Source: Coriobacteriia bacterium | GTDB lineage: Bacteria > Actinomycetota > Coriobacteriia > Coriobacteriales > UBA8131 | NCBI GenBank assembly: GCA_009783085.1 | Contig: WRHU01000001.1 | Span: forward strand, 128,196 to 192,195 | DNA: 64,000 nt | Reading direction: 5' to 3' | In this document: positions 14,978-20,720 of the stretch, one piece after another | Layout: each line of letters starts with the position of its first letter | Position numbering within the stretch: position 1 is the first letter of the stretch | Notes under the pieces: model-generated | What the model was told of the DNA's origin: nothing | What the model saw: only the letters and a program-made list of their open reading frames with translations | Databases searched by the model: none | Position numbers and translations under genes: made by a program

Positions 14978-17257
14978 CTAGTCCTTCCGCTTACGCATGA
15001 CTTCGCCGGGCAACATACGTCGTGCGTCTATAACGCCCTCAATGGCACGTAAGTCACTCAGAATACGATCTATGCTGGCAATCTCACTTACCTCATACAA
15101 AAAGCGCATCTCCACAAAGCCGTCGCGATGGCTGTTGCTGCTCGCGCCAATGACATTAACGCCACTGTTTGCCAGCGTGGTAATAACGTCCTGCAGCAGG
15201 CGCAGACGGTCAACGGCTTCAATAAAGACCTCTACGTTGTACGCACCTACGGGACGGTGATCCTCTGCCCAGTGAACGTCAATAATGCGCTCGGGTGTTG
15301 AGCGTAAGTCCTGGGCATTCGGACAATTTGCACGGTGAACCGAAACGCCGCGCCCGCGCGTCACAAAGCCAATAATTTCATCGCCCGGAACGGGGTTGCA
15401 GCAATGCGAAAGACGAACGAGTACGCCATCAAGCCCTTTGACCACCACGCCAGAAGCATCTGTTTTGGCGCGCGGGCGCTTGTCGCGTACTGGCTCAAGA
15501 ACTTGGGCATCGAGGTTTGCAATGCCAGCAATTTTTTCGACATTAGTGGTATCAGTCTCCTCTTGCGTTCCCAGCACCCGGAGCATACGGTTTGCCACTT
15601 GCTTGGCAGACTGTTTGCCAGCACCAATGTGAGCAAAAAGGTCATCGACGGTTCCCGCAGAAAGCTCGTCTGCTACCTCTTTTAAGGCGCGAGTTGAGCG
15701 TGTAGAGGCAATGCCCAGGCCGTGTTTGCGCATTTCTCGGGTAAGAACATCGCGCCCGCTGAGAATATCATCATCACGCGTCATCTTAGAAAAATAGCTG
15801 CGTATTTTTTGCCGCGCCGAGGGAGTCTTAACAATGGGAAGCCAATCGCGAGAAGGGCCCGTACCCTTTTGCGTAAGAATCTCAACACGGTCGCCCGTTT
15901 GAAGTTCATAGCTGAGCGGCATAATTGCCCCATTGACCTTTGCGCCAACGCAGCGATTGCCCACCTCGGTATGAATGGCGTAGGCAAAGTCAATTGCCGT
16001 TGAGCCGGTTCGCAGGTTTATAACCTCACCTTTGGGCGTAAAGCAAAATACCTCGGTGTAGTTAAGGTCATGCTTAAAGGCTTCAAGAAACTCACGAGAA
16101 TCTGCCTCGTCATCTGCCCAGTCAAGCATTTGTCTGAGCCAGACCAGTTGCTCGTCAAAAACAGCATCAAAGCTCTCGCTCTTGCCGCCCTTATAGCGCC
16201 AGTGCGCTGCAACGCCGTATTCGCTGGTGTGATGCATATCTTTGGTGCGTATTTGTATCTCAAGAGGACGTGCCGCCAAACCAATAACCGTGGTGTGCAG
16301 CGACTGATACATATTAAACTTGGGCATAGCAATGTAATCCTTAAAGCGCCCCGGCATAGGTCGCCAAATGGTATGCACCGCTCCCAAACACGAGTAGCAC
16401 TCCCCTATGGTTTCAACAATAACACGCAGGGCAATAAGGTCATATATCTCAGAGAAGTCCTTGCCTTTTTCTACCATTTTTTGATGAATGGAATAGAGGT
16501 GTTTTGGGCGCCCCGTTATTTTAGCGCGAATGTTGAGCTTGTCCATCTCGGCATTAAGTTCGTTGATGGTTTTTTCGAGATATTCTTCGCGAGCACTACG
16601 ACTTTCTGCAACCATACGTTGTATCTGGCTAAAACGCACGGGCTCAAGATAATAAAAGGACAAATCCTCAAGTTCCCATTTTATGGAGTTAATGCCAAGA
16701 CGGTTAGCAAGGGGGGCATAAATCTCCATGGTTTCTTGCGCCTTAAAAAGCCTTCGATCTTCGCGCAGTGCTTGCAAGGTGCGCATATTGTGCAGGCGGT
16801 CGGCAAGCTTGATAACAATGACACGAATATCGCGTGACATAGCCAAAAGCATTTTTCTCATATTGTTGGCCTGCTGCTCTGAGAGCGACTCAATCTCAAT
16901 GCGCGTAATTTTAGTAACGCCGTCTACCAGCGTCATAACGTCATCAGAAAAAACCTCGCCGACTTCCTCAATAGTTTTAGAGGAATCCTCGACGGTATCA
17001 TGCAAGATGGCTGCCACAACGGTGTCGATGTCCATGCGCAACTCAGCCAAAATAAGGGCTACCGCAAGCGGGTGGTTGATAAAGGGTTCCCCTGACTTTC
17101 GCGTCTGTCCTTCATGAGCCGATAAGGCGAACTCATAGGCTTTATTGAGCAGAGCGATTTCGGGCTTACCCATGTAGCTGGCAGCCTGATTAAGGATTTT
17201 ATCAAGGATACTTTGTTCCTCTTGTTCCAGTTCTTTTTGTATCGGCTTTTCGCTCAT
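14978..17257 (-). CDS. rel: Bifunctional (p)ppGpp synthetase/hydrolase
   Basis: HD domain (HPLAVA..HDTVED), RelA/SpoT synthetase core (DLIALRVIV, YQSLHTTV), and TGS and ACT-like C-terminal domains. Confidence 0.95.
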   Translation of the reverse strand: MSEKPIQKELEQEEQSILDKILNQAASYMGKPEIALLNKAYEFALSAHEGQTRKSGEPFINHPLAVALILAELRMDIDTVVAAILHDTVEDSSKTIEEVGEVFSDDVMTLVDGVTKITRIEIESLSEQQANNMRKMLLAMSRDIRVIVIKLADRLHNMRTLQALREDRRLFKAQETMEIYAPLANRLGINSIKWELEDLSFYYLEPVRFSQIQRMVAESRSAREEYLEKTINELNAEMDKLNIRAKITGRPKHLYSIHQKMVEKGKDFSEIYDLIALRVIVETIGECYSCLGAVHTIWRPMPGRFKDYIAMPKFNMYQSLHTTVIGLAARPLEIQIRTKDMHHTSEYGVAAHWRYKGGKSESFDAVFDEQLVWLRQMLDWADDEADSREFLEAFKHDLNYTEVFCFTPKGEVINLRTGSTAIDFAYAIHTEVGNRCVGAKVNGAIMPLSYELQTGDRVEILTQKGTGPSRDWLPIVKTPSARQKIRSYFSKMTRDDDILSGRDVLTREMRKHGLGIASTRSTRALKEVADELSAGTVDDLFAHIGAGKQSAKQVANRMLRVLGTQEETDTTNVEKIAGIANLDAQVLEPVRDKRPRAKTDASGVVVKGLDGVLVRLSHCCNPVPGDEIIGFVTRGRGVSVHRANCPNAQDLRSTPERIIDVHWAEDHRPVGAYNVEVFIEAVDRLRLLQDVITTLANSGVNVIGASSNSHRDGFVEMRFLYEVSEIASIDRILSDLRAIEGVIDARRMLPGEVMRKRKD

Positions 17258-17258
17258 G

Positions 17259-20200
17259 CTAACTCACTTCAATCTCTTTGATAGGCGTAGCAGTTTTGGA
17301 GGGCGCAGCCGCCTCAACGGATAGCTCCACCGTTACCTCGCCGTTTGCAACCTCGGGAGTAAGCGGGCGGCTTATGGTTTCGGCAAGTTGCTCAGAGGGC
17401 GCGCTAAAAGCCCAATCCCGAAACTCCTCGAACAGACCGCGCTCCCACAGTCCTTCGAGATACAGCAAACTTGTTTCAAGATCTGCCTTTTGCTCTGGCT
17501 GACAAAGTGTGTAGCGCTCTTTGCCCTCAAGCTGCGTGCGCTCCAAAAGACCAATCTCTTCAAAAATGCACAATGCAGTAACAATACCACGAGGGTCAAG
17601 CCTGCAGCCTCGCTTGCACAGGCTCAGGTTCAAAACAATTTCGCTTACAATCGGCGAGAGATCCTCACACTCAGCAGTGCAATTCATCATTTCGCTCGGC
17701 GGCGCTTCAAAACTATCATAACTCATTTCTTGCAAGACACGCCACACGCAAGTAAGATCCTCCCGTGTGGGCACCGAAAGGGAAAGCATGCGGTTATTTT
17801 GGCTGGCATCGTGACGATTAAACACAAGATGAATGTGCGCCAGATCGCCGTCGCGCCCTGCCCGTCCCGACATTTGAACAAAGTCAATGAGGCTAAAGGG
17901 CAGATGATATAAAACTACGTTGCGCACGTCAGGAATGTTGATGCCTTCTCCAAAGGCGGAGGTGCATATTACGCAGGAAACCTCGTTATCGCGCAAGGCA
18001 CGTTCAACGCTCAGGCGATCTTGCGTAGTAAGACCGGCGTGATAAAAGGCAACGTTGTTTGCCTCGTGCGGCAAAAGTTTGCGCAATGTGCGGGCGAGCA
18101 TTTGAGCTTCATCGCGTGCGTTGACATACACAAGAGTTTTTTCGTCTGAGGCAACTATGGAGGCAACGTAGCGTTCTCGATCTTTGAGCGTACGGTAGTC
18201 ACAAAGAGAAAGATTGGGACGCATAGTTGGGTCAACAATGCATTTTTTTATGGCGAGGCTTTCTTGGATACTCTTGCAGGTTTCCGTATCCGCCGTGGCA
18301 GTAACGGCAAGTTTGGTAGCTGTCTTAAAACATTCTAAAATAGTATTCAGATTGGTATAAGCACTTCTAAAACTTGATGAAGAAGTAGCAATATGGTGAG
18401 CCTCATCTATTACCACAAGCCCAACACTGCGTGCTTTGGACAAGCGCTCTGCGTGACGCTCAAGAAACTCAGGTGTTGTCAAAATGATATCGCTCTCCCC
18501 TGCCCCAAAAGCCTCAAAGGAAGCCTCACGCTCCTGACCCTGCACTTCACCCGTGAGCCTCGTTGCTTTCAGGCCAAAGTGCGCAAAGGTTCGTTCAAGA
18601 AAAAAGGCTTGGTCGTTTATGAGCGCCCTGAGTGGAAATACAAAGATGCTCGCCTCTTTGTGCGCAAGGGCTTGGCGGGCAGCTTCTATATGAAAAATGA
18701 GCGATTTGCCCCGCCCTGTTGCCATAATCGTTAAACAGTTTTGATTATCTGCCAGCGTTGCAAGCGTTTCTTTTTGCGCCTCATGCAGCTCGGCACTTTT
18801 TCCAAGGGTTTTGGCAACAAAGGCCTTTGCAAAGGCTGGAGGGTCTTTATGTGCGAGCTCTGATAGGTTCTGCGATTTTTGCGCAACCTTCTCTGTTGAA
18901 GGCTGAGTTTCAAAAAGCAAAGGCTTCTCGCTTGCTTCATCACCTGCGGGCTCAGGATAGTTCTTATCAAAAAGCCCCTTAATATGAAGCTTAATGAAGG
19001 TTTTGCCGTTCCACGTTTCAATCTTGGGAACAAAGGCTACGTCGATGGCATGACCAACAGCAAGCCAATGTTCAGTGTCAGAACAGTTAAACCAGATGGC
19101 ACCAAACTCGCTTGCGCCATCGCAGACGGTAAAGGAGAGATGCTTGCTGTCGGCTCCCACACTGCGAACCCGTGTGATAAAAACATTTTCCGCCACATAT
19201 ACCGGCTCTGGATTTTCTTGTCCGTAGGGCTCAAGGCGAGCAAGCTCACCTATGGCTTCTTTGTTCAAATTCTTAAGCCGTATGCTTGCATCGACTAAAA
19301 GCGGCGGATAAAAGTTCTCCTCAGGCTCTTTTGCGATAACCGCCTCAAGTCGTGTGCGAAAAGCAGACAAATCTGCCGCCGCAAGCGTTACGCCCACCGC
19401 AGCACTGTGGCCTCCAAAACGCTCAAGCATATCGGCGCATTGTTCGGTAGCTTCAAAAAGATTTATCGCACCAACGGTTCTGCCACTTCCGCGTGCCTGA
19501 TTATCCTCAATGGAAAATACGATGGCAGGCACCCCGTAGGTTTTTGTAAGGCGTGAGGCAACAATGCCCTTTACGCCATCATGCCAACCAGCCTCACCTA
19601 AAACCAGCACCCGGGCATCTTGCTGATAAAGAGCCGCCTGTGCGCTCGCCTCTTCAAACAAGCTGCGCTCGGTAGCACGACGCTCATTATTGAGGGTTTC
19701 AAGTTGCTCGGCAAGACTAAAAGCAGCGCGAATGTCATCAGAGAGCAGCAGGTCTAACGAGAGCTGCGCGTCCCCCATGCGCCCTGCAGCATTAAGACGT
19801 GGGATAAGCGAGAAGGTTAAATCAGTGGTGTTAAGCTTGGCTGGAGCCAAGGGCAAACGTGTTTCGCCGCCACGCGCAACATTCGAATTGCTCGAGCTAC
19901 CAGAAGCCGCCTGAGAGCTAGTATGGAGAGCGGCAAGTCCAGGGCGCAAACCAGCGTTCATGCGAGAAAGACCGTCACGCACCAAGGCGCGGTTTCGACC
20001 GGTAAGTGGTACAAGGTCGGCAAGTGTTCCAAGGGCGGCAAGATCGGTGTAGGCACGCCAGATTTCTGGCTTGTCAAAGCGAGCAGACAGCAACTCGACT
20101 ACCTTAAGCGTTATGCCAACGCCAGCAAGCACCACATCAGGGCTGTCTGGGTTAAGTTTAGGGTTACAGAGCACGCAATCAACCGGCAACTCTGCGGCGG

Positions 20201-20720
20201 GCTCGTGATGGTCGGTGATAATAACCTGTATGCCCTGCGTGGTCATAATGGCTATTTCGCTGCAGGCAGAAATACCGCAATCAACCGTAATAACAAGTTC
20301 AGGCTCATGGCTTACTATTCGTGCGACGCTTGCATCGGTAAGCCCATAGCCCTCCTCGTGACGGTTGGGTATGAGCGTTATAGGATCTGCACCAAACTCC
20401 CGCAGGGCACGGGTTAGTAAGGCAGCTGAACTTAAGCCATCAACATCGTAGTCGCCAAAGACAAGAATACGTTTTTTGGTGCGAATGGCAGCCTCAATGC
20501 CGTCTGCGGCATCAATAATGCCCGGAACCGTGGTGCTATCTCCCCATGCATCAAAAAAATCTGCTTCGAGAAAATCTTGTACGGATTCAGGCGTTGAATA
20601 ACCACGCGCCACCAAGGTAGTAGCCGCAAGCTCTCCGCACCCAAAGGCTTCTCGTATCGAAGCAACCAGATGCGGGTCAACGTCACGTGTTTTCCAACCA
20701 TAATTCAAAGAAAAGGCCAT
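17259..20720 (-). CDS. recJ: RecJ single-stranded-DNA exonuclease fused to a RecQ-like DEAH helicase core
   Basis: Residues 1-585 carry the DHH motifs (GDYDVDG, ITVDCG, ITDHHE), DHHA1 (FGGHSAAVG) and an OB-like region. Residues 640-975 carry MATGRGKS, VVIDEAHH, VTATAD, FYHAGL, TSAFGEGINIPDVR and QMSGRAGRDG (a RecQ-type motif VI). Confidence 0.85.
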   Translation of the reverse strand: MAFSLNYGWKTRDVDPHLVASIREAFGCGELAATTLVARGYSTPESVQDFLEADFFDAWGDSTTVPGIIDAADGIEAAIRTKKRILVFGDYDVDGLSSAALLTRALREFGADPITLIPNRHEEGYGLTDASVARIVSHEPELVITVDCGISACSEIAIMTTQGIQVIITDHHEPAAELPVDCVLCNPKLNPDSPDVVLAGVGITLKVVELLSARFDKPEIWRAYTDLAALGTLADLVPLTGRNRALVRDGLSRMNAGLRPGLAALHTSSQAASGSSSNSNVARGGETRLPLAPAKLNTTDLTFSLIPRLNAAGRMGDAQLSLDLLLSDDIRAAFSLAEQLETLNNERRATERSLFEEASAQAALYQQDARVLVLGEAGWHDGVKGIVASRLTKTYGVPAIVFSIEDNQARGSGRTVGAINLFEATEQCADMLERFGGHSAAVGVTLAAADLSAFRTRLEAVIAKEPEENFYPPLLVDASIRLKNLNKEAIGELARLEPYGQENPEPVYVAENVFITRVRSVGADSKHLSFTVCDGASEFGAIWFNCSDTEHWLAVGHAIDVAFVPKIETWNGKTFIKLHIKGLFDKNYPEPAGDEASEKPLLFETQPSTEKVAQKSQNLSELAHKDPPAFAKAFVAKTLGKSAELHEAQKETLATLADNQNCLTIMATGRGKSLIFHIEAARQALAHKEASIFVFPLRALINDQAFFLERTFAHFGLKATRLTGEVQGQEREASFEAFGAGESDIILTTPEFLERHAERLSKARSVGLVVIDEAHHIATSSSSFRSAYTNLNTILECFKTATKLAVTATADTETCKSIQESLAIKKCIVDPTMRPNLSLCDYRTLKDRERYVASIVASDEKTLVYVNARDEAQMLARTLRKLLPHEANNVAFYHAGLTTQDRLSVERALRDNEVSCVICTSAFGEGINIPDVRNVVLYHLPFSLIDFVQMSGRAGRDGDLAHIHLVFNRHDASQNNRMLSLSVPTREDLTCVWRVLQEMSYDSFEAPPSEMMNCTAECEDLSPIVSEIVLNLSLCKRGCRLDPRGIVTALCIFEEIGLLERTQLEGKERYTLCQPEQKADLETSLLYLEGLWERGLFEEFRDWAFSAPSEQLAETISRPLTPEVANGEVTVELSVEAAAPSKTATPIKEIEVS

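Follow-up and report, generated by a model that had tools for sequence, protein, structure and literature searches.

A RecJ exonuclease and a RecQ-like helicase joined in one polypeptide across the Coriobacteriia

The window analysed here is a 64,000-nucleotide stretch from a Coriobacteriia bacterium (GTDB lineage Coriobacteriales, UBA8131; NCBI GenBank assembly GCA_009783085.1, contig WRHU01000001.1, positions 128,196 to 192,195 of the forward strand), and the subject is one of its minus-strand genes, at 17259..20720, which encodes a RecJ exonuclease and a RecQ-like helicase as a single chain. The source genome is a 1.58-Mb draft in 19 contigs, 91% complete. The gene order around the fusion is queH-queA-tgt-secD-secF, a divergent DUF4352 gene, the fusion itself, relA/spoT, a metallo-beta-lactamase-fold gene and nadE, with relA/spoT starting at 17257, one base beyond the fusion stop codon. 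These are the classical Gram-positive surroundings of recJ, and the fusion gene is the housekeeping recJ, at the conserved secD-secF ... recJ-relA position; the secF ... relA context is kept in a Peptococcaceae metagenome-assembled genome (MAG) too. Where a database name is given (Slackia, Enteroscipio/Adlercreutzia, Raoultibacter, Coriobacteriales MAGs), it is only "single-stranded-DNA-specific exonuclease RecJ". The features of the gene, given with residue numbers (aa, amino acids) and, where modelled with AlphaFold2 (AF2), with the predicted local distance difference test score (pLDDT), are these:

17259..20720, minus strand: recJ::RecQ-like helicase fusion gene, whole, 1153 aa plus stop (ATG at 20720, stop codon 17259-17261)
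18966..20720, minus strand: RecJ module, aa 1-585, with N-terminal helices, DHH, long connecting helix, DHHA1 and RecJ OB fold
20025-20471, minus strand: DHH domain, aa 84-232 (Pfam PF01368, 82 bits, above gathering score)
19836..19910, minus strand: lineage-specific low-complexity insertion of ~20-25 aa within the RecJ module, aa ~271-295 (SQAASGSSSNSNVARGGETRLPLAPAK), Ser/Gly/Asn-rich
19332-19613, minus strand: DHHA1, aa 370-463 (Pfam PF02272, 54 bits, above gathering score)
18978-19295, minus strand: RecJ OB fold, aa 476-581 (Pfam PF17768 RecJ_OB, 94.5 bits, above gathering score)
18897..18965, minus strand: short disordered linker between RecJ OB fold and helicase, aa 586-608 (pLDDT <50 at aa 589-609)
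17826..18896, minus strand: RecQ-like superfamily 2 (SF2) helicase core, aa 609-965 (Pfam DEAD 647-815 and Helicase_C 856-958, above gathering scores)
17334..17825, minus strand: family-specific C-terminal domain, aa 966-1129, defined by conservation and AF2 models (pLDDT 80-96 there)
17259..17333, minus strand: disordered, unconserved tail, aa 1130-1153, plus stop codon (pLDDT 30-38; relatives do not align)

Translation of this frame gives 1153 codons with no internal stop. An earlier note, made from the letters of the window alone, had described one unbroken frame of that length, and this is what is found, from an ATG start onward; the motif strings that it listed (MATGRGKS, DEAHH, VTATAD, FYHAGL, SAFGEGINIPDVR, QMSGRAGRDG) are every one present in the translation. 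A frame so long could nevertheless be an artefact, arising from an overlooked stop codon, from a frameshift or from the chimeric assembly of adjacent recJ and helicase genes, and the many contigs and incompleteness of the draft genome speak for that explanation. Against it, a separate Logan assembly of SRR6220664 yields, on an 8.8-kb contig with the same flanking genes, a protein identical over all 1153 aa, and a fusion match was obtained in 200 of 201 sampled Coriobacteriia genomes, single-contig genomes included, in open frames of ~1100-1330 aa. Homologue alignments (16 and 61 sequences) pass the junction in frame, the same six Pfam domains recur in hundreds of protein-database clusters at 41-56% identity, and the AF2 model is confident on either side of the junction. 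Because the independent protein is identical, the fused frame is found throughout the class and the alignments stay in frame, an artefact at the junction (18897-18965) is very unlikely; the explanation has effectively been refuted already and retains next to no credence, and it is practically certain that the fusion is real. The stop or frameshift for which the note had proposed a check at the junction is thus seen neither in the Logan assembly nor in the frames of relatives, and the taxonomic spread that it had left to be established takes in nearly the whole class, with the same architecture in some other lineages as well.

By sequence and predicted fold, residues 1-585 are a bona fide RecJ, and the full complement of RecJ DHH and DHHA1 motifs read there from the letters is borne out. 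The TIGR00644 recJ model scores 452.4 bits against a curated equivalog cut-off of 396.9, and none of the 61 homologues departs from it at the metal-binding and catalytic residues D90, D92, D147, D170-H171-H172, D235 and G436-G437-H438. The top PDB sequence matches of this half are the RecJ proteins of D. radiodurans, S. aureus and T. thermophilus (best E 4e-74). When the full-length model is compared with RecJ structures by Foldseek, E values of 1e-26 to 1e-40 are obtained; 5f55 and 8y30 reach E ~1e-40, and 2zxo gives TMt 0.74 with a root-mean-square deviation of 3.5 over 582 columns. The low-complexity insertion is missing from 14 of the 15 other homologues in a 16-sequence alignment (columns 281-300), the remaining one having a shorter insert, and it is predicted to be disordered (pLDDT <50 at aa 276-289).

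The other half of the chain shows the landmarks of an SF2 helicase, namely N-terminal helices, motif 0 (Q649), Walker A GRGKS (K672), DEAH (772-775), TAT (T809) and motif VI, QxxGRxGR (Q949, R953, R956), and the residues from motif 0 to motif VI are all invariant in the 61 homologues. Across the same span the core aligns to positions 13-350 of E. coli RecQ (1oyw). In RecQ an aromatic-rich loop couples ATP hydrolysis to unwinding. A remnant of this loop is recognizable at F784-R785...Y788 (DEAHHIATSSSSFRSAY vs DEAHCISQWGHDFRPEY in E. coli), in which F-R..Y is kept and the W and H are lost, with R785 and Y788 invariant in the homologues. The 41 best PDB sequence matches of the helicase half all belong to the RecQ family (RecQ, BLM, RECQ4, RECQ1, WRN, RECQ5), the first non-RecQ family being Hel308 at E 4e-15, and Foldseek returns the cores of RecQ, WRN, BLM and RECQ1 at E ~1e-16 to 4e-19. 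Among NCBIfam helicase models the best are recQ (193.2 bits) and recQ_fam (191.7), followed by DpdF (129) and the ligase-associated DEXH helicase (94). The nearest known relatives are accordingly the RecQ helicases, by a wide margin among both family models and structures, and the affinity to a non-RecQ SF2 family that the earlier note had entertained as a counter-test did not emerge.

Even so, the helicase falls outside the canonical RecQs, in a separate clade of RecQ-like proteins whose members usually bear a HIRAN domain. Both scores fall below the curated cut-offs (recQ_fam, TIGR00614, 191.7 vs 219.8; recQ, TIGR01389, 193.2 vs 640.2), only positions 10-345 of 470 of the RecQ model are covered, and the canonical RecQs of related genomes score 420-580 bits. 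The zinc-module cysteines of RecQ have no counterpart, in that alignments of 16, 61 and 25 sequences contain no invariant or near-invariant Cys past motif VI, and Pfam gives no HRDC match in the window protein, even at E<=10 in the C-terminal region. HRDC is common in bacterial RecQs, though some members of the family go without it. The claim of a RecQ-like helicase core therefore stands for the SF2 motifs and the RecQ-family matches, but it does not extend to RecQ proper, given the sub-threshold scores and the missing zinc module and HRDC domain.

Past the core, the last 194 aa have no Pfam match, RQC included, even at E<=10. The earlier note had likewise recognized nothing in the last ~180 aa, no RQC or HRDC pattern among them, and this holds; the region is, however, not mere filler, since it contains a family-conserved domain. 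The prediction for this domain is a hairpin of helices at 969-998 that bears no Cys cluster, a unit resembling a winged helix at 1023-1072, and two more helices within 1085-1116. Conserved within it are L1081, S1084, Y1087, E1089, G1090, F1100 and W1103, as well as RP(I/L)xP at 1118-1122. Modelled separately, the domain reaches pLDDT 81.6, and a Foldseek search against the PDB yields only weak, generic winged-helix regulators (best E 0.056). Homology to the RQC domain of RecQ was considered and is not established, the isolated domain having no significant Foldseek match. In the models the domain appears RQC-like in position and topology, with homology not demonstrable, and would follow the order of elements in the RecQ C-terminal region without the zinc ligands.

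The full-length AF2 model, built on 61 sequences, has a mean pLDDT of 87.6 and a predicted TM-score (pTM) of 0.83, and predicted disorder is confined to residues 276-289 in the insert, residues 589-609 at the linker and the C-terminal 24 residues. Foldseek ranks RecJ structures first for this model and then RecQ catalytic cores, WRN, BLM and RECQ1; some of the alignments cover the whole ~515-residue RecQ catalytic core (~520 columns). Because a pTM of 0.83 is high for four or more domains with a disordered linker, the model suggests that the domains of the fusion hold a defined mutual arrangement.

The disordered linker is ~23 aa long, and ~60 aa separate the end of the OB fold from the first helicase motifs. 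No HIRAN (PF08797) is detected in the window protein by a Pfam scan, and many relatives have a HIRAN of roughly 100 aa or more at just this linker position in the alignment (e.g. P0008/P0084/P0098/P0101); a C-terminal placement of HIRAN in the longer homologues proved wrong, the alignment putting it in the linker. In other orders of Coriobacteriia, HIRAN matches fall inside fused frames of 1210-1330 aa. In the window's order they fall only in small frames of 112-174 aa, one family excepted. The window protein is a derived form, from which the linker HIRAN has been lost.

Small stand-alone HIRAN open reading frames (ORFs; 112-174 aa) are present in ~60% of the sampled genomes of the window's order, whose fusions are HIRAN-less. 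The source genome has such a gene on contig C11 (L084:2790-3128, minus strand), where a 112-aa stand-alone HIRAN protein overlaps the start of an HNH_3/NUMOD4 endonuclease gene and is flanked by a Cas12a-like gene (REC1, Cpf1 REC2 domains) and a WYL-domain gene. The small HIRAN ORFs may be partners of the fusion, or parts of mobile or defence elements.

To place the family, residues 591-1153 were searched over 1.84 billion representatives, giving 585 clusters at E<=1e-30, the best 150 of which were sorted by architecture. Among these 150, RecJ-HIRAN-helicase proteins of about 1180-1310 aa are commonest; RecJ-helicase proteins without HIRAN, about 1050-1160 aa and of the window's type, and stand-alone HIRAN-helicases of 589-690 aa make up further classes. 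Helicase-only entries of 450-570 aa were rejected as a true architecture, as they form short branches beside fused proteins and are probable gene fragments. The first canonical RecQs come in at about E 1e-41, with no more than the core matched. In a quick maximum-likelihood tree, which was rooted with five canonical RecQs and has a long-branch root that makes it indicative only, the fusion family and the stand-alone HIRAN-helicases form one group apart from the five RecQs. A clade of stand-alone HIRAN-helicases splits off first in this tree, at least nine changes of HIRAN state are required, and the window protein lies in a five-member HIRAN-less clade. On the simplest history, a HIRAN-RecQ-like helicase was joined to the C-terminus of RecJ, and HIRAN was lost repeatedly thereafter, in the window lineage among others.

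A member of the early-splitting clade is found in a 'Candidatus Acidoferrum' (Acidobacteriota) MAG (L078:2458-4497), in which a 679-aa HIRAN-RecQ-like helicase starts within the end of secF, in the usual recJ slot, with a NUDIX gene next.

All 25 sampled family-level groups of Coriobacteriia carry the fusion, and fused-size frames occur in several other small-genome lineages of the phylum (f31, in 4/4 genomes, plus f63, f90 and f92). Named records come from Collinsella, Olsenella, Atopobium, Adlercreutzia, Parvibacter, Senegalimassilia, Slackia, 'Ca. Oleimmundimicrobium' and a Peptococcaceae (Bacillota) MAG. A 1111-aa fusion on a contig labelled 'Treponemataceae bacterium' (L015:3001-6357) has the length and match pattern of the Collinsella records, and this is probably a mis-binned Collinsella contig.

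The C-terminal domain also has relatives outside the fusions. Of seven loci for long clostridial RecJ, six have a ~100-aa tail that is matched by a hidden Markov model (HMM) of the fused family; the matches are collinear and fall at positions ~970-1066:

L064:4696-5097, L070:4720-5061, L073:4535-4909, L077:4693-5055, L079:4708-5052 and L080:4375-4716: tails of long clostridial RecJ, homologous to the C-terminal domain of the fusion

With hhalign, the alignment of the C-terminal domain and that of the seven clostridial tails match with 97.4% probability (E 9e-12) over 90 columns, corresponding to fusion residues ~979-1086, and both have the pattern P-x-R..L..V(W/Y)R ... VF.E.GL ... K(A/V)(D/E)L..S. 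These sequence comparisons support homology between the tails and the fusion domain. In addition, an unclassified MAG encodes, upstream of relA, an 851-aa RecJ (L069:2914-5469) in which RecJ is followed by only the second of the helicase lobes (RecA2) and by the C-terminal domain of the family (together HMM positions 829-1095, E 4.5e-29), and which looks like an intermediate or a partly deleted fusion. The clostridial tail may be the remnant of a lost helicase, or else a pre-existing tail upstream of which a helicase was inserted.

Whether a separate recQ exists elsewhere in the genome had been left by the earlier note as a point to check, and no other RecQ-family gene was found in the source genome at its 91% completeness. 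Elsewhere in the class, 60 of 121 sampled genomes hold a canonical RecQ (420-580 bits) beside the fusion, and the idea that the fusion replaces RecQ throughout the class was discarded on this count. On this evidence the fusion is a system paralogous to RecQ, and not recQ in a new location. The description of the gene as a Rosetta-stone fusion of the RecJ and RecQ partners remains apt in that RecJ and a RecQ-related motor share a single chain; it has to be amended in that the motor is a RecQ-like paralogue and not the RecQ that half of these genomes keep. The genes recF, recO and recR are all present in the source genome.

Contig C10 of the same genome (L085:4921-8331) encodes an AddA/AdnB-like protein of 1136 aa, in which a UvrD-type helicase has a PD-(D/E)XK nuclease at its C-terminus. 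The gene is flanked by those for an ABC transporter and homoserine dehydrogenase and by an unannotated 374-aa ORF on the opposite strand, and no gene for an AddB/AdnA-like partner lies next to it. With this enzyme in the genome, the fusion was not retained as a candidate for the sole resection enzyme.

What the fusion does can be framed by its separate counterparts. On its own RecJ can digest 5' tails, but at blunt or 3'-tailed ends resection begins only with the help of RecQ, which unwinds 3'-5'. The reaction is stimulated by SSB, and no direct or stable contact between RecJ and RecQ was found in D. radiodurans (PMC4846377). A covalent tether would provide such a coupling of the two. Because both active sites are strongly conserved among the 61 homologues, the sequences argue that the nuclease and the helicase activities are both used. 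It is on the whole probable, by analogy with these enzymes, that the protein is a coupled helicase-nuclease for resection or gap processing. If the motor has the 3'-5' polarity of RecQ, it would track along the 3'-ended strand into the duplex from an end, nick or gap and peel away the 5'-ended strand, which the tethered RecJ ring would degrade 5'-3'; the two activities would then travel the same way on opposite strands. The product would be a 3' single-stranded DNA (ssDNA) tail, or a widened gap, for RecFOR-assisted loading of RecA, and the ancestral HIRAN may have served in loading at the 3' ends of gaps or forks.

Several points weigh against this proposal. Helicase polarity and the coupling of the two halves are deduced from homology. 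The motor, as a non-canonical RecQ that scores below the cut-off and has neither zinc module nor HRDC, could differ in substrate preference; the fusion need not do RecQ's job, a canonical RecQ being retained in half of its relatives' genomes; and the AddA/AdnB-like enzyme could be the main machine for double-strand-break resection in this genome. The ancestral HIRAN, moreover, hints that the 3' ends to be recognized are those of forks or gaps and not those of breaks.

This last point leads to a different main role, at stalled forks and post-replication gaps. The HIRAN domain of HLTF binds 3'-OH ends at forks. In E. coli, RecQ and RecJ reportedly act at blocked forks after ultraviolet irradiation. 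On such precedents the fusion would be loaded at a 3' end or at a junction with a nascent strand, open the duplex, and digest the nascent lagging strand or widen gaps, with the AddA-like enzyme taking care of breaks. The position of HIRAN between nuclease and helicase in most of the family is in keeping with this, as are the separate UvrD-type helicase with its PD-(D/E)XK nuclease and the processing of blocked forks by RecQ and RecJ (Courcelle & Hanawalt 1999, cited in PMC4846377). The window protein itself, however, is HIRAN-less, and fork and break roles are compatible, involve the same chemistry and are not separated by sequence. A role mainly at forks and gaps is the main rival reading, a possibility to be kept in mind more than one to be expected. 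It is considerably more doubtful that the helicase is no duplex unwinder at all, and acts instead as an ssDNA translocase, as an SSB- or protein-clearing aid to RecJ processivity, or in another RecJ pathway (excision in base-excision or mismatch-type repair). The zinc module, canonical RQC and HRDC, which handle duplexes and junctions, are indeed missing or replaced; RecJ of D. radiodurans contacts partners and SSB via its own C-terminal domain (PMC4846377), and the fusion C-terminal domain shares homology with the long-RecJ tails. Yet none of the motor motifs varies among the homologues, the motif-0 Q and part of the aromatic-rich loop among them, and the model predicts a winged helix at the place that the strand-separating one occupies in RecQ.

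With resection or gap processing by a coupled helicase-nuclease as the preferred account of function, a wider and more speculative idea may be put forward. The RecJ-(HIRAN)-RecQ-like chain could be an old, autonomous, single-polypeptide resection motor, a functional analogue of RecBCD or AddAB made from entirely different parts, in which case the C-terminal tails of long RecJ proteins in Gram-positive bacteria would be products of its decay, the winged-helix module left over from a lost helicase. We regard this as conceivable, though rather unlikely as a whole.

Resection in the RecF pathway and the processing of forks are the textbook work of RecQ and RecJ as a pair, and a natural 1:1 covalent fusion of the two enzyme types lends itself to structural and single-molecule studies of their coupling. 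The fusion is a clean Rosetta-stone case, though with a RecQ-like paralogue as the helicase partner. It is conserved in a class that includes abundant human gut genera (Collinsella, Eggerthella-type genera, Slackia, Olsenella), and since the annotation "RecJ" hides half of the protein, repair-gene inventories of these bacteria miss a helicase. The homology between the C-terminal domain and the long-RecJ tails may in turn explain a RecJ domain that is functionally important and of obscure origin. Full-text literature searches turned up no account of RecJ fused to a helicase or to HIRAN; PMC12345164, examined as a possible precedent, concerns ExoDinG and not RecJ. What is new, then, is a helicase-nuclease repair machine assembled from known partner types, RecJ and a RecQ-type motor, here HIRAN-less, in an architecture undescribed in the literature searched.

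Comparison with known systems starts with the RecF-pathway pair of RecQ and RecJ (E. coli, D. radiodurans; in B. subtilis RecQ/RecS and RecJ), in which the same two enzyme types are found, the RecJ half being orthologous, and which would be expected to give the same product, a 3' tail for RecFOR and RecA, the recF, recO and recR genes being available here. In E. coli and Deinococcus, however, RecQ and RecJ are separate proteins, whereas here they are one polypeptide, with a helicase of a separate RecQ-like clade. Members of the same family are the RecJ-HIRAN-RecQ-like fusions, 1210-1330 aa long and annotated 'RecJ', that are found in related lineages and in the other orders of Coriobacteriia; they occupy the same locus and are 41-47% identical throughout; they differ in the linker HIRAN, which the window protein and most families of its order do not have. 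Stand-alone HIRAN-RecQ-like helicases (630-690 aa), such as L078, have the same core and C-terminal domain (38% identity over aa 591-1123), but no RecJ module, and their HIRAN is N-terminal. The long clostridial RecJ proteins (about 685-720 aa, with a ~100-aa tail) are the converse case, in that the tail is homologous to the fusion C-terminal domain and the helicase lobes are missing.

Other single- or two-chain machines, RecBCD, AddAB, AdnAB, eukaryotic Dna2 and WRN, follow the same design principle, a DNA motor physically coupled to a nuclease, by which unwinding and degradation advance in step. In WRN a RecQ-type core is likewise fused to an exonuclease, but that exonuclease is DnaQ-type and acts 3'-5', whereas the one here is of the DHH family and would act 5'-3'. 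RecBCD, AddAB, AdnAB and Dna2 combine superfamily 1 UvrD/RecD-type motors with PD-(D/E)XK nucleases, while the window protein has only an SF2 motor and a DHH nuclease. It is proposed to be a single-chain analogue of RecBCD/AddAB, or of BLM or WRN acting with DNA2.

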